Source: Acinetobacter phage vB_AbaM_14/CRR8. From it: a stretch of DNA of 64,000 nucleotides. Of this stretch, positions 30,510 through 63,086 are shown one piece after another (position 1 is the first letter of the stretch; every line of letters begins with the position of its first letter). A model generated the notes under the pieces. The model made no database searches, was not told the origin of the DNA, and was given only the letters and a program-made list of their open reading frames with translations. The DNA is taken from sequence record PV611675.1, one strand, 5' to 3'. Made by a program: the position numbers and the translations under genes.

Positions 30510-30790
30510 ATGTTGGAACTATTGGTGGAGGCAGACAGCTTAATGCAGCTATCATAGCTCATGCATTGGCAAATGATCTAGTATCTGCACTTGGTGGACC
30601 AAAGCCTGTTCGATATACTTATCGTGACGATGATGGTGTTTTCACAAGAGCTTATGCTCAAGACTCAGTATCTAACCGACATACTTTTATTAAGTTATTA
30701 CAGGGTACAGAGTTTTGTTATCAGGAGTCTGAAATACAGAAGTTCTTAGCTTTTAAGGGTCAAAATTCAATTTTAGTGGAGAATATTTAA
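30506..30790 (+). CDS. hypothetical protein
   Basis: 94 aa. Confidence 0.35.
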   Translation: MNVGTIGGGRQLNAAIIAHALANDLVSALGGPKPVRYTYRDDDGVFTRAYAQDSVSNRHTFIKLLQGTEFCYQESEIQKFLAFKGQNSILVENI

Positions 30791-31854
30791 TGAGTAAAGC
30801 ACCTAAACCTTTCCGTCCAATGAAAACAGTAAATGAAGCATTGGATTTTGGTGATGTAAAGTATCCAAAGTTTGGGTCAATTAAGTTCGATGGTGTGTAC
30901 GCATTTGTTCGTGATAACAAATTACTCGGACGTTCTCTTAAACCTTTGAAGAATAAATGGATCACAGAGCAGCTTAGTCATCCAGAATTTAATGGTATGG
31001 TGTTTGAGACATTGAATGCTCGTATGGATGGTAAAGACGGCTTACAATTGAACCGACAAGATTTATACAACAACAGTAATTCTTGTACTGGTACGATCAA
31101 CAAGGAAGATTGGGATGTTACCTTAGTGTTGTTTGACTACGTCAAAGACTGTACTGGAGAGTATTTAGAGAATCCATATGATGTTCGTATGGAGCATTTG
31201 AATCTACTTCTCAGCGAGTTGAGCGACGAGGCATTTATCACAGAGCATAATATCTGTGGTATCGACTATCATGAATATATGATTCGTGGCATCACTGTAT
31301 TAATCCCAATGCCTCATCTTATTGAAGATGCTGAGTATGCGCGTGAACTTTACGAGCGTATTGTTGCCGAGGGTCATGAGGGCTTAATCTTACGTTGCCC
31401 TATGGGTGTATTTAAGTGTGGTCGAGCTACCAAGAAGTCTCAAGAGATGATTCGATTCAAACCTTCTGGTGATAGTGAGATCATTGTCACTCGTATGGAA
31501 GAGATGATGGAGAATCAGAATGAAGCTAAGACAAATGAGTTAGGCTATACTGAACGTTCTTCACATCAAGAGAATAAAGTGCCTCTTGGTATGGTTGGTG
31601 CATTGATTGGTATCGACATCAATTCTGGCATTGAGGTTAAGATTGGAGCTGGTAAGCTTACACATGAACAGCGTAAAGAGGTTTGGGATAATCGAGGTGA
31701 TTATATCGGTCGATTGGCTAAGTATAAGTTCATGGATTCAGGTCAAAAAGATTTGCCACGACATCCACGTTGGGTTGGTTGGCGAGAGTTAACAGATGTG
31801 GACCCAGAGGTTGTTTCTTTTGCTAAAGAACATGATGTATATATTAAGGAGTAA
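30790..31854 (+). CDS. ATP-dependent DNA ligase
   Basis: Motif I GSIKFDGVY (KxDG). Downstream blocks EGLILR (motif IV-like) and IRFKPSGD (motif V-like). 354 aa, small phage-type ligase. Confidence 0.7.
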   Translation: MSKAPKPFRPMKTVNEALDFGDVKYPKFGSIKFDGVYAFVRDNKLLGRSLKPLKNKWITEQLSHPEFNGMVFETLNARMDGKDGLQLNRQDLYNNSNSCTGTINKEDWDVTLVLFDYVKDCTGEYLENPYDVRMEHLNLLLSELSDEAFITEHNICGIDYHEYMIRGITVLIPMPHLIEDAEYARELYERIVAEGHEGLILRCPMGVFKCGRATKKSQEMIRFKPSGDSEIIVTRMEEMMENQNEAKTNELGYTERSSHQENKVPLGMVGALIGIDINSGIEVKIGAGKLTHEQRKEVWDNRGDYIGRLAKYKFMDSGQKDLPRHPRWVGWRELTDVDPEVVSFAKEHDVYIKE

Positions 31855-37623: not shown

Positions 37624-37893
37624 GTGAAGTGTATGTTGGTAGTTAGTCGAAGAACTGCAATATTTATTAATACAGTCGCTAATTGGGCTTTTATTAATTA
37701 CAATTATGATCGTAATGCACTGAAGGATTTTCAGGGTAGGCTTAGAGATAGAGTTAACCTATCAAAATTAGTTAGTGATGTATCTTTAGGTGATGACTGT
37801 GATTGTCTTGTTTCGATAGATGATGCAGACACACCTTTAGTTGAAAGTATTCTTAAAAGTTTCAAGGAGCGTAATCGTGGAAGTAATTCGTAA
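37624..37893 (+). CDS. hypothetical protein
   Basis: 89 aa. Confidence 0.3.
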   Translation: MKCMLVVSRRTAIFINTVANWAFINYNYDRNALKDFQGRLRDRVNLSKLVSDVSLGDDCDCLVSIDDADTPLVESILKSFKERNRGSNS

Positions 37894-38785
37894 TAAGGTG
37901 GTAGAACAATATACTTGGGCTGGTCAGAAAATTGAATTGACTATTAAGAAATATAAGCCGATTGTTTTCCATAAAAATTTGTGGGACCAATACCCTTCAG
38001 CTATCAAAGCGCGTGGTGCTGTATATCATGGTGATGAACAAGTGGTATATCCTATGGACAAGTGTTTCAACTACCTTGAGAATGGTTGTGGAAAAGATAT
38101 CGAGGGTGATCACTATGTTATGTGGTATCGTAAAGTAAATGGCTTTATGGTGAACCTTACATACCATGAAGCTCTTGGTTGGATCATTTCAACTACAGGT
38201 GATGCTATCATCTTTGGCAATGTGACAGAGAATAAATACATCAATATGGCTTTGCAGTATATTGAAAAGTATGATGGCTTTGGTTTGTATGAACAGTTAA
38301 AGGGTGACTATTGCTTCTTTGATGACGATCAATTTACGGTGACGTTTGAAGTTGTCCATGAGAATGATCCACACATCGTAACTGAAGTGACTGGACTATA
38401 CCCATTATGTGTGCAAAAGAATGGTGTAACAATACCATTAAATGTCTCTCTTCAGGAGGATGGTAGTGGTGAGTTTGATGATTTGAAAGAAGCTTTGAAG
38501 GTATGTAGACATGAAGGCTTTATGGTCTACAATGGTGCTGGTGAGCTTCTATTTAAGATGAAGTCTCCATATTACCTTGCTAAGAAATGGGTACAGCGTG
38601 GAGGAGCTAAGCGAGTTTGGAGTAATGACTATAAAGAACGTTTGGATGAAGAGTATTACCCAATCATTGATTACTTACGATCACATCATGACAAGGAAGA
38701 GTGGGATAAGATGACAGAAGAGGCAAAGTCTATTGCATTCTTGGATGCTTACTACTTTGTAAATAACTTTAGTAGGGAGGGATAA
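37877..38785 (+). CDS. RNA/DNA-ligase-like covalent nucleotidyltransferase (putative RNA ligase)
   Basis: Motif I YRKVNGFM (KxNG variant, as in tRNA ligases). Motif III FFDDDQFTVTFEVV. Motif IV HEGFMVYNG. Motif V LLFKMKSPYY. Start taken at the GTG at 37877, 7 nt after aaggag. Confidence 0.45.
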   Translation: MEVIRNKVVEQYTWAGQKIELTIKKYKPIVFHKNLWDQYPSAIKARGAVYHGDEQVVYPMDKCFNYLENGCGKDIEGDHYVMWYRKVNGFMVNLTYHEALGWIISTTGDAIIFGNVTENKYINMALQYIEKYDGFGLYEQLKGDYCFFDDDQFTVTFEVVHENDPHIVTEVTGLYPLCVQKNGVTIPLNVSLQEDGSGEFDDLKEALKVCRHEGFMVYNGAGELLFKMKSPYYLAKKWVQRGGAKRVWSNDYKERLDEEYYPIIDYLRSHHDKEEWDKMTEEAKSIAFLDAYYFVNNFSREG

Positions 38786-39342
38786 TGGGTGTAGTAACAC
38801 ACGGCATGAGTGGGACTCCATTGTACCAATGTTGGAAGAATATGAAGGCTAGGTGTTATAGAAAGTCATCTACTCACTTCCATAGGTATGGTGGTAGGGG
38901 TATTAAGGTCTGTGATGAGTGGAAATTTTCATTCATCACATTTATGGATTGGGCATATAAAAGTGGCTACTCTGAGGATTTAACTATTGATAGGGTAGAT
39001 GTTGATAAGGACTATACACCTGATAATTGTAGATGGATTAGACCTGATGAAAATGTATCAAGAGCTAACTTTTACCATAAGGAGTTAGGAACTGGATGTC
39101 AATCGGATACATCTAAGATGAAAATGAGGGAAACCATTGTTGATTTACAAGGCATGAAGGTTGAACTTTATTTTGGTTTGAAATTGATTGGTGTGTATGA
39201 TTCAATAGGTCTAGCTTCTGATTATGTTGCTGAAGCCCTTGGAAGGAAGAAAAAGAATGTCTACTCTCAGATGAAACAACAAATGAAAGGTAAGGTTAAA
39301 ACTACTGGTGGCTATACTGTGGAGGAATTTTTAGATGAGTAA
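38785..39342 (+). CDS. HNH_3-type homing-endonuclease-like protein
   Basis: CYRKSSTHFHRYGGRGIKVCDEW...TIDRVDVDKDYTPDNCRWI matches the HNH_3 / AP2-associated endonuclease pattern. It is inserted between the ligase-like and Pnk-like genes. Confidence 0.4.
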   Translation: MGVVTHGMSGTPLYQCWKNMKARCYRKSSTHFHRYGGRGIKVCDEWKFSFITFMDWAYKSGYSEDLTIDRVDVDKDYTPDNCRWIRPDENVSRANFYHKELGTGCQSDTSKMKMRETIVDLQGMKVELYFGLKLIGVYDSIGLASDYVAEALGRKKKNVYSQMKQQMKGKVKTTGGYTVEEFLDE

Positions 39343-39755: not shown

Positions 39756-39944
39756 GTGAAAATTTTACTAAATGGGTTGGAATGGGACTCTGAGGTACAT
39801 AAAAATTTAATTAAAAAATTGGGTGGTGTCAAGGTTATTGAAGGTAAAATAAAAGAACCTCTTTTAGCAGGGGAGGCTCACTACTATAAAATGATCTTGC
39901 ATGTAAAGGAAACTTTTGAAGCTCATAACGTAGGATTTAAATAA
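39756..39944 (+). CDS. small hypothetical protein
   Basis: 62 aa. Confidence 0.3.
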   Translation: MKILLNGLEWDSEVHKNLIKKLGGVKVIEGKIKEPLLAGEAHYYKMILHVKETFEAHNVGFK

Positions 39945-40570
39945 TGGCTAAGTTATCTACAAGTGATTTACATTTTGGACATGTAAATATTTTAAAGTTC
40001 ACCAAGCGTTACCATTTTATGTTTGACGATTCAACTTTTAAAAATCAATATTTTATTGATTCGGATGTATTTGAAAGAATGCATAACGGAACTCTGACTT
40101 ATTCTGACAAGGTGTTGATTAAAGAGAAGCATGATAATTGGTTGATCGAAAGGTTGAATAGCCAAATTGACAATGGTGATGTGGTTTATCATGTAGGGGA
40201 TTTTGCATTCTATAAGGATGTAAAGTCTATTCGCAATATCATTATGCAGTTGGCTGGAGATTGGATTTTTGTACTAGGTAATCATGATAATGAATCTACA
40301 TTACGTGAAGCTTGTAAGGGTACTCGTCATAAGGTGGTAGGTTATTACCATATGACTCGTGTCAATCGTAAGCGTGTGATTTTCTGCCATTTTCCTTTTG
40401 AAGAGTGGGATCAATGCCATAATGGTTCATGGCATGTCTATGGACATTTACATGGTTCTGATGGTCATGGGGAGTTCAAGATGAGAAAGGACTTGCCACG
40501 TCGATTTGATACTGGCATTGATGCACATAAAGAATGTAAGCTTTTCAACTTAGATGAGGTGATTCAGTGA
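39944..40570 (+). CDS. calcineurin-like metallophosphoesterase (candidate 2',3'-phosphatase end-healing enzyme)
   Basis: DLHFGH, VYHVGDFA, VLGNHD and FCHFP blocks match the metallophosphatase signature DxH...GD...GNH(D/E). Confidence 0.6.
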   Translation: MAKLSTSDLHFGHVNILKFTKRYHFMFDDSTFKNQYFIDSDVFERMHNGTLTYSDKVLIKEKHDNWLIERLNSQIDNGDVVYHVGDFAFYKDVKSIRNIIMQLAGDWIFVLGNHDNESTLREACKGTRHKVVGYYHMTRVNRKRVIFCHFPFEEWDQCHNGSWHVYGHLHGSDGHGEFKMRKDLPRRFDTGIDAHKECKLFNLDEVIQ

Positions 40571-41012: not shown

Positions 41013-41245
41013 TGCCTATATGTATTGGAGGACCATTCCATGATAAACATGCTAATTGTGGTGATTACATTTATACTATAATGGGTACTAGGAAGCTTGT
41101 AGAATATCGGCTAAGAGATTACTGTTATGACGATGGTTCTATTAAAAAGATTCAACTTTACCAGCATGTGTCCCTTTCAGATGAATGTATCATTCAATTC
41201 CTAAATGAAAAATTTAATTTAAACCCTGTTGAGAAAAAGTCTTGA
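41012..41245 (+). CDS. hypothetical Cys/His-rich protein
   Basis: 77 aa. CIGGPFHDKHANCGDY. Confidence 0.35.
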   Translation: MPICIGGPFHDKHANCGDYIYTIMGTRKLVEYRLRDYCYDDGSIKKIQLYQHVSLSDECIIQFLNEKFNLNPVEKKS

Positions 41246-41269
41246 CAGGGTTTTTCTTTGCCTGTAATA
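41241..41269 (+). promoter_or_regulatory. sigma70-like promoter TTGACA-N17-TAATAT overlapping a 7 bp hairpin (AACCCTG...CAGGGTT + T-run)
   Basis: Read directly from the sequence. Confidence 0.45.
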
Positions 41270-41303
41270 TTCACTTCACTTCATAGACAACTAGGAGCTG
41301 GAA

Positions 41304-42586: not shown

Positions 42587-43690
42587 ATGAAATTTATCAA
42601 GTACCCAAGCATTAAACGTTTAACTGAACGTGCAATCAATAATGTGAAGGAAATGCCATTTGAATTACCACAATTTATGGTAACTGAGAAACTTCATGGG
42701 GCCAATATGGGTATCTACTCTAATGGTGAAGAGTTTAAGATTGCATCTCGTGAAGGTTTTGTCCGTGAAGGTATCAAGTTCTACAATGGTCGTGCTGTAG
42801 CTGATCGATACAAAGATGGTATCATGGAACATGCCAAACACTCTGTTAAATCTGCTCGTGAGATTGGCATCATTGGTGATGTAGTAAGTATCTACTTTGG
42901 TGAACTGTTTGGTGGGAGTATCCATAAAGGTACACCATACTCTCAAGAGCAAGATTTTGTTTTGTTTGACTTCTTCATGACATTTGAAAACTCTGAAGAG
43001 AACCTTAAAGCATTAAAGCTATTTGGTGTTAAAGATTTTATTGTATATGAGGAGCAAGGAGTTATTGCTTGTCGTAGTTACGATAAACCTAGTTCATTGA
43101 AATACATCTCCGAGTTTATTGGTTGTCGACATATTGAGATTTTATTTATTGGCTCATTTGAAGATGCTTTAAAAGTTGAGAACAACTTTAAATCTAAGTA
43201 TGTGTGTCCTGAAAAGGTTAAGGAGTCTGGCGTTGCTGCTCATGGTCAAGATGCAGTAGACTACCTATGCATTACTGAAGGTGTAATCATTGAACCAGTG
43301 AACCCAATGAATCATTTTGGTGACATGCTTAAATACAAATCTAAGAACTCTAAGTTTGAAGAGAAGTATAATACAGGTTATAAAGAGAAAATTTCTGCTG
43401 TTGAGAAGGCTCTCAATAAATTAACAGATGAAGAACGTGATACATTGACTGATATGGATCAATACATTACTAACCCTCGTTACGATGCTGTGGTGAGTAA
43501 GATTGGTGAAGTAACCATCAAAGATTTTTCAAAAGTTTTGAAAGCTTTTGTTGAAGACGTATTAGCTGACATTAAAGAAGATTATCAAGAGTATCGTGAG
43601 TGCTTCCCTGATCTTAGTAAAGATGCTATGATGTTATTCACAAATGAAGTTAAAGCGTTTATTCGCCCTAAATTATTGGAGAACAGTTAA
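42587..43690 (+). CDS. RNA ligase 2 (T4 Rnl2-like)
   Basis: Motif I TEKLHGANMGI, the KxHG variant that characterises Rnl2. EGVIIEP (motif IV). LKYKSKNSKF (motif V). The C-terminal VVSKIGEVTIKDFSKVL parallels the T4 Rnl2 C-terminal domain. Confidence 0.8.
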   Translation: MKFIKYPSIKRLTERAINNVKEMPFELPQFMVTEKLHGANMGIYSNGEEFKIASREGFVREGIKFYNGRAVADRYKDGIMEHAKHSVKSAREIGIIGDVVSIYFGELFGGSIHKGTPYSQEQDFVLFDFFMTFENSEENLKALKLFGVKDFIVYEEQGVIACRSYDKPSSLKYISEFIGCRHIEILFIGSFEDALKVENNFKSKYVCPEKVKESGVAAHGQDAVDYLCITEGVIIEPVNPMNHFGDMLKYKSKNSKFEEKYNTGYKEKISAVEKALNKLTDEERDTLTDMDQYITNPRYDAVVSKIGEVTIKDFSKVLKAFVEDVLADIKEDYQEYRECFPDLSKDAMMLFTNEVKAFIRPKLLENS

Positions 43691-44658
43691 TGTCCATTTT
43701 ACGAGTTAAAAACTTCCTTGAACTGCATGTAGTTGGCAAGGGGCAGATTAAAGTAGATGTGGTGGAATTTGGGGACGGCACTAAAAGTGTCCGTATCCCT
43801 ACTATTAAGTGTTACGACCGAGAGACCACTTTCCGTATTGAGTTATTTCAGCGTAGTATGGATGACATCATGCTTGTTGCACAAATTGTAGATATCATTC
43901 GTCGTAATACACGTACAATTGTGAACATCATCTTAAGCTTAGAGTCACCAATGTATATGCGTTATGATCGTGTGATGAATGATAAGAAGGATGATGCCTT
44001 TGCACTAAAACAGTTTGTGAAAATGATTCTGGCGACAGGTGTCAATCATGTACAGTTGACAGACCCTCACAGTGAAGTGGCTGAGGAGTTGTTATTCCTA
44101 CATGGCTCTGGTCGAAACTTTGTAAGTGTTACACGTCAAGAAGATTGTGTGTATGAGGCTCTACGAACATTCACAGAAGGACATAAAAACCTAGGGCATT
44201 ATGATATTGTACTACCTGATGCTGGAGCAGCTAAGAAAGTTCTTGGTTATGAAACTTTCCAATGTATGAAAGCTCGTGACCCTAACACTGGTAAGTTGTC
44301 TAAAGCTGGGTTTGATATTGATCCTAATGTATTAACTAAGTTGTTATTGAGTAAGAAAGATAGAATCATTATTGTTGACGACATCTGCGAGAACGGTGGA
44401 ACCTTCTTAGGATGCCATAAAATGCTCAGAGAGCGTGGTGTTATAAAACCTATGGATTTGTACATCACACATGGCGTATTCCCTAATGTGCAAGCAATGA
44501 GTAAGTTCTATGGGGTGTTTGAGAATATCTACATATACAATGGAACAAATGCAAAGTATCTTGACCTTGTATCCCATACAGGAGCTAAGATTCATATGGT
44601 AAATGCTTTTGTGGGAGCTGATGAATTAGTTTTCGAAGATGACCTATTTAAGTCTTGA
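43690..44658 (+). CDS. Prs-like phosphoribosyl-pyrophosphokinase-fold protein; candidate ADP-ribose pyrophosphokinase (Adps) of a NARP1-type NAD+ reconstitution pathway
   Basis: 322 aa. PRPP-synthetase-type binding loop RIIIVDDICENGGTFLG. The overall length matches Prs. Its start overlaps the Rnl2 stop (TAATG). A NAMPT-like gene lies 285 nt downstream. Confidence 0.6.
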   Translation: MSILRVKNFLELHVVGKGQIKVDVVEFGDGTKSVRIPTIKCYDRETTFRIELFQRSMDDIMLVAQIVDIIRRNTRTIVNIILSLESPMYMRYDRVMNDKKDDAFALKQFVKMILATGVNHVQLTDPHSEVAEELLFLHGSGRNFVSVTRQEDCVYEALRTFTEGHKNLGHYDIVLPDAGAAKKVLGYETFQCMKARDPNTGKLSKAGFDIDPNVLTKLLLSKKDRIIIVDDICENGGTFLGCHKMLRERGVIKPMDLYITHGVFPNVQAMSKFYGVFENIYIYNGTNAKYLDLVSHTGAKIHMVNAFVGADELVFEDDLFKS

Positions 44659-44684
44659 CATCTATACAATAGTGGGGTTATAAT
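44655..44684 (+). promoter_or_regulatory. sigma70-like promoter TTGACA-N18-TATAAT with the -10 in the clamp GGGGttataatggCCCC
   Basis: Read directly from the sequence. Confidence 0.45.
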
Positions 44685-44711
44685 GGCCCCACAAACTTTT
44701 AGAGGTGTGCT

Positions 44712-44939
44712 ATGAGAAAAGCTCGTATTAAAGCTACAAAACAACAAATGGTTGATATGGGTATCGACGGTGTGGTTGTTAATGGAGAGGTAATTAAAGA
44801 TGGTACAATTCTAGACATTAAAGAATTGCAAATCAACTTTGAGGGTAAGCCAGCATTTCAGTTTATTGGATCATATAATGGGTTAATAGACCATACATGG
44901 TACATCTCGGCTGAGCTATTTGAATTTATTGAGGGTTAA
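44712..44939 (+). CDS. hypothetical protein
   Basis: 75 aa. RBS tagaggtgtgct-ATG. Confidence 0.4.
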   Translation: MRKARIKATKQQMVDMGIDGVVVNGEVIKDGTILDIKELQINFEGKPAFQFIGSYNGLIDHTWYISAELFEFIEG

Positions 44940-44942
44940 TTT

Positions 44943-46787
44943 ATGAATTTTTTAGAAAAGAAAGCCTTATTAGAGGAATCAATCTTTGACGCAGTGCCAA
45001 AGGTGAATCCTTTCTTATATTGGACAGACTCTTACAAAGATTCTCATATTCGTTTTGAAGTTGAGGGTGTTAAGTATATTTATTCTAATGCCACAGCACG
45101 TTTTGGTTACTACATGAAAAACCTTCTGGGTGAATACTTTGAAGATGAGTTCGTTGTTTTTGGTATTCAGTGGATGTTGGCACGTTTTCATGCTATGGCT
45201 AAGATCGGATTCTTTGATCGTCCTAAGCAAGAAGTATTGGATGAAATGTTAGAGGTACTTGGACCTTACATTGGTGAAACGGATGTAACTCGTTTTGGTG
45301 ATCTCCATGATCTTGGTTATGTACCATTGATCTTTAAAGCATTACCAGAAGGTACAGTTGCACCTATTGGTACTCCATTCTATACATGTGAGAATACATT
45401 ACCTGAATTTGAATGGCTTGCAAATTTCCTTGAGTCTGGTATGTCTACAGATACTTGGAAACAGTTAACAGTAGCTACTGTAGCTTATGCTTTCCGTCGA
45501 ATCAGTAACAAGTTCGCTTTAGAGACTCAAGGAAATATCGAGGGTACAGAGTGGCAAAACCATGACTTCTCAACACGTGGTCAATCTGGATTTGAGTCTG
45601 GTGCAATTAATGGTGTAGCATTCTTGCTTAGCTCTTGTGGCACAGACAATAAGCCATCATTGTGGGCAGCTCGTGACTTCTATTTGAGTAAGAATACCCA
45701 AGACTTATTGTTGTGTGGTTCTGTACCTGCTGGGGAACATAGTGTTTCTACATTAGGTATTCAATCATTCATTAAGAAAGCTGAACTTGCTGGTGAGGAA
45801 CTATCGTTACTTGAGGCTGAAATTAAATATGCTAAGTTTGTTATTACAGAACGTTTCCCTACAGGTATCTTATCTTATGTGTCGGATTCGTATGATTACT
45901 GGGGATTCATTAAAGAAGTTCTTCCAGCTCTTAAAGAAGATATTCTTGCACGTGATGGTAAACTTGTTGTGCGTGGCGATTCAGGTGATCCTATTCATAT
46001 TATCGCTGGTTATCGTATCTTTGATGCTGATACAGATGTACGTGTTAAGGGTAAGTTTAATTCAGTATCTCAGTTGATGTTGAACACACACTTATGGTGG
46101 GATTCTAAGTGGGAGGTCATCAAATTCAATGATCAATATTTCTTGATCATTGATAGTGGTACAGAACTTCAAGAGATTTCACGTGAAGAAGCTCATGGAA
46201 CTATCCAATGTTTATGGGATGAGTTTGGTGGTATTGTAAATGATCTTGGATTTAAACACTTAGATAGTCATATCGGCATGATCTATGGTGATGGAATTAC
46301 AATCCAACGTTCAGTAGAAATCTTGACTCGATTAAAGGACAAAGGTTTTGCATCTACAAATATCGTATTTGGTGTAGGTAGTTACTCATTGAATATGTTA
46401 TCTCGTGACCATCTTGGTATTGCCATTAAAGCAACCAATGCAATCATTGAGATTGATGAACGTCTCGTTGAGATGCCTATCTACAAGGACCCTAAGACTG
46501 ATACGAGTAAGAAGTCTGCTAAAGGTTATTTGGTGGTGTCTGCTGATAAGGAAGGGAATATCATTACTTTGGATGAACAGAGTCGTGAAGCAGCTTTACA
46601 TACTGGTTTACTTGAAACTGTATATATGAATGGGCAATTCCAAGTCTTAACTACAGTACCAGAGATTCGAGAGCGTCTATGGAATCCTAAATCTTTAGCT
46701 CCTCCAACTGTAGAGGAGGGTGAGGAAGTGATTGTAAATGATATCACACCAGAAGTTGACGGTGAGTCAGAGGAGTTTGTAGAGTAA
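44943..46787 (+). CDS. nicotinamide phosphoribosyltransferase-family protein; candidate nicotinamide ADPR transferase (Namat) partner of the Prs-like gene
   Basis: 614 aa. NAMPT/NadV-like blocks: HDFSTRGQSGFESG, DSYDYW, RGDSGDP, IYGDGIT. It has an acidic C-terminal extension. It pairs with a Prs-like gene rather than an NMN adenylyltransferase. Confidence 0.6.
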   Translation: MNFLEKKALLEESIFDAVPKVNPFLYWTDSYKDSHIRFEVEGVKYIYSNATARFGYYMKNLLGEYFEDEFVVFGIQWMLARFHAMAKIGFFDRPKQEVLDEMLEVLGPYIGETDVTRFGDLHDLGYVPLIFKALPEGTVAPIGTPFYTCENTLPEFEWLANFLESGMSTDTWKQLTVATVAYAFRRISNKFALETQGNIEGTEWQNHDFSTRGQSGFESGAINGVAFLLSSCGTDNKPSLWAARDFYLSKNTQDLLLCGSVPAGEHSVSTLGIQSFIKKAELAGEELSLLEAEIKYAKFVITERFPTGILSYVSDSYDYWGFIKEVLPALKEDILARDGKLVVRGDSGDPIHIIAGYRIFDADTDVRVKGKFNSVSQLMLNTHLWWDSKWEVIKFNDQYFLIIDSGTELQEISREEAHGTIQCLWDEFGGIVNDLGFKHLDSHIGMIYGDGITIQRSVEILTRLKDKGFASTNIVFGVGSYSLNMLSRDHLGIAIKATNAIIEIDERLVEMPIYKDPKTDTSKKSAKGYLVVSADKEGNIITLDEQSREAALHTGLLETVYMNGQFQVLTTVPEIRERLWNPKSLAPPTVEEGEEVIVNDITPEVDGESEEFVE

Positions 46788-47260
46788 TGATTGAGGAACG
46801 CATCAAAGGTGATGTGTTCCCTTACCTTATGAAGAAGGATAACAATTTTGACGCATTTGTTCATGGTTGTAATTGCTTCTGTACTATGGGTAAGGGGATA
46901 GCTCCACTAGTCAAAAAGCATTTCTATGCTGCTTATGAGGCTGATTTACTCACAGAGAAAGGTGATCGGAGTAAGCTTGGTGATTATACATGGGCTTGGT
47001 TTAATGAGTATAAACTTGAAATTATCAATGCTTACACTCAATACGATTACAGAAAAGCTTATGGTGATACAGATATCAATGTCAGTTATCATGCTATTCG
47101 GGAAGTGTTTAGAAAGCTTAACAAGGACTATCGAGGGTGTCGATTCGCTATACCTAAGATCGGTGCTGGTTTGGCTGGAGGTGATTGGGAGTTGATTGAG
47201 AAGATCATCAATGAAGAGACACCACACTTACACATTACATTATTTTATTTAGAGGATTAA
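46787..47260 (+). CDS. macro domain protein (ADP-ribose binding/processing)
   Basis: 157 aa. DAFVHGCNCFCTMGKGIAPLV (the N-x6-GGG-like ADPR-binding loop region) and RFAIPKIGAGLAGGDWE (the second phosphate-binding loop). Its start overlaps the NAMPT-like stop (TAATG). Confidence 0.55.
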   Translation: MIEERIKGDVFPYLMKKDNNFDAFVHGCNCFCTMGKGIAPLVKKHFYAAYEADLLTEKGDRSKLGDYTWAWFNEYKLEIINAYTQYDYRKAYGDTDINVSYHAIREVFRKLNKDYRGCRFAIPKIGAGLAGGDWELIEKIINEETPHLHITLFYLED

Positions 47261-47262
47261 TT

Positions 47263-47523
47263 ATGAAATTTAATATTAAAGGCGTACAACCTCTTGTACA
47301 ATCAAATAAGTTCCCTGCTTTAGTGCAAAGTATTCCACAAGAAGGCGATAATCCAGAAGATGTATTTATTATTTGGGCTTTGGACAAGAGTCAAGGTGTC
47401 ATTGTAAAGAACACTGAAGAGCCTGATTCTGAAGGTGAACTTGAAGATGGTTATGACTTTACAGACTCTAAGGCTTGGGTCCGATTACCAGTTGGAACAG
47501 TGCTAGAAATTACTCAAGAATAA
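47263..47523 (+). CDS. hypothetical acidic protein
   Basis: 86 aa. Confidence 0.4.
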   Translation: MKFNIKGVQPLVQSNKFPALVQSIPQEGDNPEDVFIIWALDKSQGVIVKNTEEPDSEGELEDGYDFTDSKAWVRLPVGTVLEITQE

Positions 47524-47537
47524 AATATTTAAATTAA

Positions 47538-47565
47538 GGGTGAGCTTAGGCTTGCCCTTTTTTAT
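47538..47565 (+). terminator. intrinsic terminator GGGTGAGCttaggCTTGCCC + T7
   Basis: Read directly from the sequence. Confidence 0.6.
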
Positions 47566-63057: not shown

Positions 63058-63086
63058 TTGACAGGATGAGAATTGACAGGTATAAT
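63058..63086 (+). promoter_or_regulatory. consensus promoter TTGACA-N17-TATAAT
   Basis: gaTTGACAggatgagaattgacaggTATAATga. A second TTGACA lies in the spacer, so the promoters are overlapping tandem ones. Confidence 0.5.

Follow-up and report, generated by a model that had tools for sequence, protein, structure and literature searches.

The 64,000-nt stretch of Acinetobacter phage vB_AbaM_14/CRR8 studied here (PV611675.1; the whole stretch is called the window below) carries on its plus strand a group of genes that is very probably a NARP1-AP cassette, a counter-defense system by which a Saclayvirus phage would reconstitute NAD+. NARP1, made up of Adps and Namat, was published in 2024 (Osterman et al. 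2024), and NARP1-AP, which also contains Adpp, in 2026 (Osterman et al. 2026, bioRxiv 10.64898/2026.01.28.702374). The source is a myophage of Acinetobacter baumannii and belongs to the genus Saclayvirus. The closest phage is vB_AbaM_B09_Aci01-1 (MH800198, 103.6 kb), with 98.8% identity across 43690-46787 and protein identities of 99.1% for Adps, 100% for the small ORF75 (an open reading frame, ORF, of 75 amino acids, aa), 99.5% for Namat and 100% for the macro-domain protein. A first-pass annotation had proposed a NARP1-type system from a 322-aa and a 614-aa protein, both of which lie exactly where it had stated. This reading is favored: gene content, homology, conserved residues, fold and the genomic linkage to Adps all agree with it, no nicotinamide mononucleotide (NMN) adenylyltransferase was detected, and the genes are found in published lists. 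The three genes concerned are the following:

43690-44658, plus strand: Adps, predicted ADP-ribose pyrophosphate synthetase, PRPS-like, 322 aa (from fold, residues and BLASTP)
44943-46787, plus strand: Namat, predicted nicotinamide ADP-ribose transferase, Nampt-like, 614 aa (from PDB and BLASTP scores and core residues)
46787-47260, plus strand: Adpp, predicted macro-domain ADP-ribose-1''-phosphate phosphatase, 157 aa (from homology to Adpp of Vibrio phage Gary)

We infer the three enzyme activities, and the anti-defense phenotype, from homologues that have been tested (SPbetaL1, Bas63, ICP1 and Gary). In the proposed pathway, a host defense with a SIR2, TIR or SEFIR effector would cleave NAD+ into ADP-ribose (ADPR) and nicotinamide. 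Adps would then move the beta,gamma-pyrophosphate of ATP onto the 1'' position of ADPR, giving ADPR-pyrophosphate (ADPR-PP) and AMP, with K194 as the key catalytic lysine. Namat would swap the pyrophosphate of ADPR-PP for nicotinamide, yielding NAD+ and pyrophosphate, and neither NMN nor an NMN adenylyltransferase would be needed. The RES-domain defense aRES would yield ADPR-1''-phosphate, which is no substrate of Adps: here, Adpp would strip off the phosphate, releasing it as inorganic phosphate, and the resulting ADPR would enter the pathway.

The genes of the near-identical phage Aci01-1 are already catalogued. The supplement of Osterman et al. 2024 places MH800198_00139 in the Adps/Prs-family table and MH800198_00141 in the Nampt family, as "Adps-associated". 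Table S1 of the later study (Osterman et al. 2026, bioRxiv 10.64898/2026.01.28.702374) groups MH800198_00139, 00141 and 00142 into one NARP1 operon that includes a MACRO protein, and several other Saclayviruses also occur in the published NARP1 tables. The system as such was hence known, and little is added to it scientifically. The points that go beyond the catalogues are the orphan ORF75, the atypical adenine clamp of this Namat and the likely division of Adps and Namat between two transcription units.

The 322-aa protein is supported as a very divergent PRPP-synthetase-like protein (PRPP, phosphoribosyl pyrophosphate), and its scores favor Adps over Prs. The explanation to be weighed for this protein and for its Nampt-like partner is a PRPP-dependent salvage, in which a divergent Prs would make PRPP, a NadV/Nampt enzyme would make NMN and the NMN adenylyltransferase of the host would complete NAD+, as a NARP2-like route or a metabolic boost. 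The superfamilies of the two proteins, Prs and Nampt, would suit it, but such a salvage is very improbable. Against the NCBIfam model TIGR01251, the window protein reaches only 50.5 bits (cut-off 113; all equivalog models remain far below their cut-offs), while E. coli Prs reaches 423 bits and four experimentally studied Adps 98-138 bits. Among PHROG families, phrog_619 is matched at 3e-51. The comparison of Prs with Adps that the first-pass annotation had put forward as a check comes out on the side of Adps: the BLASTP scores are 83 bits with Bas63, 69 with Gary, 66 with ICP1 and 59 with SPbetaL1, compared to 30 bits with E. coli Prs (b1207), and a profile built from the 88 closest homologues gives 166-222 bits to the validated Adps and 131 bits to E. 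coli Prs. The placement of Adps, like that of Namat, is based on such scores, pairwise or from profiles, together with the published tables. The Namat gene lies two genes downstream of Adps (criterion: a Namat homologue within 10 genes).

The PRPP-synthetase fold, which had been claimed from the letters alone, is borne out by the AlphaFold2 model, a two-domain PRPS-like structure with a mean confidence (pLDDT) of 90.4. In Foldseek, its superposition on either human PRPS1 or E. coli Prs has a TM score of ~0.66 (E ~1e-10) at 18-19% identity. The last strand of the model (300-308) is followed by a tail of 14 aa with a pLDDT of 48-67 and a single four-residue helix. This short, low-confidence tail fits the loss of the alpha11-alpha12 regulatory/filament module of PRPS, a loss that is a signature of the Adps family according to the structural study of ICP1 Adps (PMC13586617); the lack of a structured C-terminal module also counts against a Prs for salvage.

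The residues that bind ADPR or take part in catalysis in ICP1 Adps are F18, R87, H121, D161, K185, D212, D213 and F221 (PMC13586617). All have their counterpart in the window protein (F27, R91, H127, D177, K194, D230, D231 and F239, respectively), and in an alignment of the 88-sequence family most of them are invariant and the rest nearly so. The PRPP-binding loop IIVDDICENGGTF, quoted in the first-pass annotation, is indeed present at about residues 227-239, to which D230, D231 and F239 belong. K194, invariant in the family, is aligned with K185 of ICP1 and K162 of SPbetaL1, the catalytic lysine of the beta-hairpin, and mutation of SPbetaL1 K162 abolished NARP1 activity (Osterman et al. 2024). 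F27 corresponds to the phenylalanine that contacts the adenine of ADPR from the neighboring protomer; its retention argues against a protein making PRPP.

For the 614-aa protein, sequence comparison supports Namat over NadV. That it is NAMPT-like, as first annotated, follows from its matches to PF04095 (8e-27) and phrog_448 (1e-166). Among PDB entries, the best are 9W5X/9W5W, the structures of SPbetaL1 Namat, at 336 bits, compared to 165 bits for human NAMPT. The comparison of the NadV and Namat clades, also suggested at the first pass, likewise gives higher scores to the validated Namats (BLASTP: SPbetaL1 326, Bas63 310 and Gary 302 bits) than to NadV of KVP40 (141 bits), the PRPP-preferring Nampt of NARP2 (Osterman et al. 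2024).

The catalytic core of the window Namat is intact: D29, Y31, F209, R212, D235, H266, R344 and D346 correspond to D13, Y15, F189, R192, D215, the catalytic His, R306 (aligned with R344) and D308 of SPbetaL1. An intact Nampt core would also serve the PRPP-dependent salvage, and a validated Namat still makes NMN from PRPP (PMC12774641). The NCBIfam model PRK09198, tried as a discriminator, was rejected, as it does not separate the two kinds of enzyme: the cut-off is passed by the validated Namats with 418-594 bits but also by KVP40 NadV with 508 bits, and the window protein, at 389 bits, falls just below it. What stands against the salvage is that the similarity of both window proteins to the validated Adps and Namat is about twice that to E. 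coli Prs or to NadV of KVP40, and that counter-defense by the homologous Bas63 operon is independent of the host enzymes leading from NMN to NAD+ (Osterman et al. 2024).

Namat is told apart by its adenine clamp, consisting of a helix with the motif GS-X-phi-X-phi-X-phi-TRD, with aromatic residues in positions 3 and 7, and of a variable loop (PMC12774641). The helix reads GSYSLNMLSRD in the window and GS[FY]TYQY.TRD in the validated Namats; in the Nampts it reads GGGLLQQLDRD (KVP40 NadV) or GGGLLQKLTRD (human), with GGG in positions 1-3. The window clamp has the frame and the position-3 Tyr of a Namat, with Ser-Tyr where the Nampts have Gly-Gly, and its TRD is replaced by SRD. The selectivity-clamp loop between beta1 and beta2, which should supply an Arg, Lys or Tyr as stacking residue, exceeds that of every reference in length and contains many aromatic residues (ARFGYYMKNLLGEYFED); Y56 is placed opposite R40 in a loop alignment that is unreliable. 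Compared to SPbetaL1, Namat has an insertion of ~60 residues (357-417), at a site also expanded in Bas63 and Gary. Its acidic C-terminal tail (46680-46787, about residues 580-614) is variable in sequence; it is found in the Saclayvirus relatives and absent in SPbetaL1, Bas63, Gary and ICP1.

The PDB entries 9KE8/9KEO, named "nicotinamide phosphoribosyltransferase", score 261 bits with Namat, between the Namat structures and human NAMPT. Their clamp, GAQTYQRNTRD, is without both adenine-stacking aromatics. No paper mentioning the entry was found, and it was not used as a reference.

IMG/VR was scanned with an alignment of Namat and NadV, and the 80 closest loci were kept (L015-L094). An ORF resembling Adps lies in the fetched flanks, within 6 kb, in 72 of the 80 at a hidden Markov model threshold of 1e-5, and in 69 at more than 100 bits; the loci without such an ORF are mostly short or truncated contigs. 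In every locus in which the clamp motif was found, position 3 is Phe or Tyr, and position 7 is mostly Tyr or Phe.

The 157-aa macro-domain protein is supported as Adpp of NARP1-AP and, in this analysis, as a predicted component of the pathway. The first-pass annotation had correctly seen a macro gene as the downstream neighbor but had missed that it belongs to the system. With Adpp of Vibrio phage Gary, it has an identity of 36.8% across 133 aa, with the motifs CNCFC.MG.GIAP and IG.GLAGGDW in common. Purified Gary Adpp converts ADPR-1''-phosphate into ADPR and is needed, together with Adps and Namat, against the RES-domain defense aRES (Osterman et al. 2026, bioRxiv 10.64898/2026.01.28.702374). 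Further matches are phrog_335, annotated as "phosphatase" (3.5e-51), macro structures of the PDB (1.8e-7) and Poa1p (E 0.012). Across Saclayviruses, the ratio of nonsynonymous to synonymous substitutions (dN/dS) of the gene is ~0.01 at a dS of 0.7-0.9, indicating very strong purifying selection. A macro gene is present in the fetched flanks of 19 of the 80 IMG/VR loci; the published value is 15% (Osterman et al. 2026, bioRxiv 10.64898/2026.01.28.702374). A homologue of an ADPR-1''-phosphate phosphatase in the same unit as Namat is sensible only for a route based on ADPR, which again speaks against PRPP-dependent salvage.

The NMN adenylyltransferase, noted as missing at the first pass, was found neither among the ORFs of the window nor among those scanned in the remainder of Aci01-1. 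In 41 window ORFs and 7 ORFs of that remainder (39 kb outside the window), there were no matches to a cytidylyltransferase-like NMN adenylyltransferase (CTP_transf_like), Nudix, NadR or PnuC at E<=1e-3 (<=1e-2 in some scans). The remainder is otherwise taken up by tRNAs and by genes for structural or small hypothetical proteins. A candidate for a missing NatV half, the 208-aa ORF at 39944-40570 (Aci011_117 in GenBank, "MutT/nudix"), was rejected: its only Pfam match is a weak one to the calcineurin-like phosphoesterase family Metallophos_2 (22.6 bits), so that the Nudix label looks wrong. NARP2 (Nampt and Nmnat) requires an NMN adenylyltransferase encoded by the phage, often fused to Nudix, and finds no support here, as none was found in the ORFs scanned. 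The same holds for NARP3, a PnuC-like transporter with a bifunctional NadR-like enzyme (PMC13464706), for which these ORFs gave no Pfam matches.

Several observations weigh against the identification of the locus as NARP1-AP. Many phage ORFs have no Pfam match at all, hence a very divergent NMN adenylyltransferase would be possible, and its absence counts as good evidence, if short of absolute. Acinetobacter hosts possess their own NMN adenylyltransferase; the lack of a phage enzyme alone does not, therefore, rule out a route through NMN. Adps, with 322 aa, is longer than the typical 270-290 aa, and it has E for D216 of ICP1, M for F92 (M96) and G for F223. In the PP-loop donor site (DDICDGAASFKF in ICP1, DDICENGGTFLG in the window), DDIC and F221 are kept, while, besides the changes at D216 and F223, AAS has become GGT. 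In the functional Adps of Bas63, the position of F92 is likewise a Met, and F223 is missing both there and in SPbetaL1. In the clamp of Namat, the second adenine-stacking aromatic (position 7, Y396 of SPbetaL1) is a Met, and position 5 is a Leu, as in Nampt. A clamp without one of its two aromatics, and with the Leu in positions 5 and 8 common to Nampt, is also what a salvage enzyme might show. But Met, His or Cys in position 7 are found in other Namats linked to Adps (GSYSLNMVSRD in L015, GSFQLGMASRD in L024, as well as L069, L089, L019 and L078), which places the window clamp, even if atypical, within their natural range. The support in this lineage comes from sequence and models, and the assayed enzymes belong to other phages. 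Lastly, the macro protein scores 18.4 bits with Pfam Macro, below the cut-off of 22, and has a weak resemblance to DarG.

This resemblance raises another explanation for the macro protein, outside NARP1: it might act on ADP-ribosylated macromolecules, like DarG, against DarT or other ADP-ribosyltransferase defenses, or on the Appr-1''p and Appr>p of RNA repair. Antitoxin DarG is in fact its only NCBIfam match (36 bits, 3.6e-9, cut-off 250), and its best PDB matches are uncharacterized macro proteins, not Poa1p. RNA repair is also close by: Rnl2 is coupled upstream of Adps, and the closest GenBank record has annotations 4-5 kb upstream for a further RNA ligase and for a polynucleotide kinase/phosphatase. 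Such a role is nonetheless unlikely, given the identity and the common motifs with Gary Adpp, whose conversion of ADPR-1''-phosphate was shown. Moreover, the MACRO sequence listed for MH800198 in Table S1 of Osterman et al. 2026 is identical to the window protein, and the gene remains with Adps and Namat even in Acibel004, where its position has shifted to upstream of Adps. Rnl2 itself shows no general link to NARP1, an idea that was rejected: an Rnl2-like ORF occurs in 0 of the 80 IMG/VR loci (single-sequence phmmer, E<=1e-5).

Around the three genes of the predicted NARP1-AP, the locus contains the following further features, of which ORF75 and the promoter in front of it had not been noted at the first pass:

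42587-43690, plus strand: Rnl2-type RNA ligase (Pfam RNA_ligase and T4_Rnl2_C; phrog_548, 1e-55), genomic context and no component of NARP1
44655-44684, plus strand: sigma-70-type promoter, TTGACA-18-TATAAT, 12 of 12 consensus positions, in the gap between Adps and ORF75
44672-44692, plus strand: 9-bp hairpin around the -10 hexamer (dG -13.8 kcal/mol, z -3.4)
44712-44939, plus strand: ORF75, small lineage-specific gene of 75 aa (from dN/dS), ending 3 nt before Namat
47263-47523, plus strand: ORF86, acidic 86-aa protein, last gene before the terminator, no family match
47536-47559, plus strand: terminator-like hairpin followed by a T-run (10-bp stem with 5 GC pairs, TTTTATTG tail)

The translational coupling to Rnl2 upstream and to the macro gene downstream, claimed at the first pass, is visible as two TAATG stop/start overlaps (Rnl2/Adps at 43688-43692 and Namat/macro at 46785-46789). 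The statement that Adps and Namat sit in one operon holds for these overlaps but not for a single unit, since a promoter, a hairpin and ORF75 separate Adps from Namat; with an internal promoter and a hairpin at that place, "one operon" is an oversimplification. The promoter, a perfect sigma-70 consensus, lies in the 53-nt gap after Adps, and five Saclayvirus relatives have a TTGACA-type promoter at the corresponding place. Hairpins of 9-11 bp surround the -10 region in at least four relatives, with differing stems, a dG of -12.6 to -16.5 kcal/mol and a z of -2.3 to -6.2 (promoter/hairpin coordinates: L011 3949-3990, L012 3950-3990, L013 3951-3985, L014 4836-4875). These were folded sequence by sequence; RNAalifold gave -0.6 kcal/mol on a MAFFT alignment that was out of register. 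The hairpin at 44672-44692 may be a terminator or attenuator of the upstream unit, may form a terminator and promoter in one, or may have a regulatory role.

In the whole window, sigma-70-like matches of at least 11 of 12 positions number 16 on the plus (coding) strand and 1 on the minus strand, a bias that suggests real host-type promoters. Judged from these elements, the locus probably consists of an upstream unit that closes with Rnl2-Adps and of an ORF75-Namat-Adpp-ORF86 unit after it, read-through being possible between them. The hairpin at 47536-47559 probably ends the latter. Elsewhere in the window, a second perfect sigma-70 consensus is found at 63058-63086, and a terminator-like hairpin at 41221-41270 overlaps a TTGACA -35 box.

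ORF75 is a real gene, judging from its substitutions: its dN/dS is 0.05 compared to phage D22 at a dS of 0.95, which means strong purifying selection, and it lies at the same position, with 30% identity, in more distant Saclayviruses. All records in which it was found, 20 in number, are of Acinetobacter phages, among them the Saclayvirus relatives examined. No relatives were detected beyond this group: a search among 5.8 billion proteins gave one true homologue, and exhaustive searching of 1.84 billion representatives with HMMER returned the same one together with false positives due to repeats or low complexity. One of these false positives contains DUF5666 repeats and is too weak as a lead. 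ORF75 has no Pfam or PHROG match; its AlphaFold2 model is poor (pLDDT 68; other models <=50), and a Foldseek search of this model against the PDB was empty. Two other candidates were dropped: a relative of the aRES inhibitor aRad1a, to which there is no similarity, and a RyR-domain protein of the RyDEP type, for which 75 aa are too short and PF02026 gives no match. ORF86 also has no family match in Pfam or PHROG, and it occurs only in 15 Acinetobacter phage records.

The place of ORF75 between Adps and Namat is often occupied in other phages. Among the 69 IMG/VR loci with both genes, 41 have a spacing of at least 150 nt, and all but one of these contain at least one ORF in the gap. The gap ORFs fall into several unrelated recurrent families, including macro, none of them related to ORF75; a comparison of ORF75 with the ORFs inserted between Adps and Namat in the 80 loci showed no similarity. 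Judged by eye, macro accounts for 6 loci, and other putative families in the gap are proteins of 132-185 aa with a DxDxT-like motif (HAD-like phosphatases?, 9 loci) and Thg1-like, GatB/YqeY-like and nucleoside-deoxyribosyltransferase-like proteins. A published case is RyDEP, a RyR-domain glycosidase inside a mycobacteriophage NARP1 operon. The variety of the gap ORFs, together with Adpp and RyDEP, points to the position between Adps and Namat as a slot for accessory genes.

The cassette might consequently be more than a standard NARP1-AP, with ORF75 as a fourth, lineage-specific component and, separately, a Namat whose substrate recognition is altered; we regard this as doubtful, if conceivable. 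As a speculation, ORF75 might process or capture another product derived from ADPR, or inhibit an Acinetobacter NADase, in parallel to Adpp and RyDEP. The Met in place of the second aromatic, the long aromatic-rich loop and the acidic tail could reflect an altered substrate recognition by Namat.

Within the cassette, divergence among Saclayviruses is mosaic. Compared to the relatives L011-L014, the identity is only 48-62% for Adps, whereas it is 88% for Namat and 92-99% for the macro protein; for ORF75, it is 89% in D22 and 30% in P1 and phiAbaA1. Such a mosaic suggests recombination breakpoints within the cassette.

Upstream, a set of RNA-repair genes is found at 37841-39339, where the closest GenBank record names ORFs as RNA ligase and as 3'-phosphatase/5'-polynucleotide kinase, with Rnl2 (42587-43690) downstream of it; two ORFs of this stretch, 37841-38782 and 38785-39339, were scanned and have no Pfam match. 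These RNA-repair genes may be a second counter-defense module, directed at tRNA nucleases. The window also encodes an ATP-dependent DNA ligase (30790-31851; DNA_ligase_OB_2 and DNA_ligase_A_M), and the phage's own ligation would thus not depend on NAD+. In the Aci01-1 genome beyond the window (L095, 3894-4277, minus strand), a 127-aa protein contains a DUF4326 domain (2.5e-13).

A lineage of A. baumannii phages of the therapeutic type thus appears to carry an extended NAD+ reconstitution pathway. Its presence predicts escape from NAD+ depletion by Thoeris, DSR, SIR2-HerA, SEFIR and aRES-type defenses, which would be relevant when phages against Acinetobacter are chosen or engineered.

Among the closest known systems, the NARP1-AP of Gary (bioRxiv 10.64898/2026.01.28.702374) combines the same three families in one locus; Adps of the window is 27.5% identical to its Gary counterpart, and both Namat and Adpp are 36.8% identical to theirs. 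The order differs: Gary has Adps-Adpp-Namat, with the phosphatase in the middle, whereas the window has Adps, ORF75, Namat and Adpp, with the phosphatase last. An extra orphan gene, an internal consensus promoter, a divergent clamp helix and the acidic tail of Namat further set the window apart.

With the NARP1 of SPbetaL1 and Bas63 (PMC12774641), the window has in common the pair of Adps and Namat, with the catalytic Lys and the Namat core kept, and it is here that the similarity is highest. On the other hand, its clamp helix, GSYSLNMLSRD, differs from the GSFTYQYNTRD and GSYTYQYMTRD of these phages, its selectivity-clamp loop is longer and its Adps is more divergent (50 bits with TIGR01251 vs. 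106-138). The macro phosphatase is present only in the window.

ICP1 Adps (F1D1Q1; PMC13586617) has the PRPS-like fold, the acceptor site, the beta-hairpin lysine and the DDIC...F residues of the PP-loop in common with the window protein, and both are without a structured alpha11-alpha12 module. BLASTP identity is ~25-29%, and the window protein is ~40 residues longer, owing to N-terminal and internal insertions and its short tail.

The remaining systems are more distant. NARP2, represented by NadV-NatV of KVP40, also uses a Nampt-family enzyme and also restores NAD+ during infection, but it relies on PRPP and an NMN adenylyltransferase, and the window Namat is only 25.6% identical to KVP40 NadV. 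With cellular Prs (E. coli b1207) and with Poa1p of yeast, the window proteins have the PRPS and macro folds, respectively, in common; the window scores lie far below the Prs cut-offs, and the relation to Poa1p is remote.

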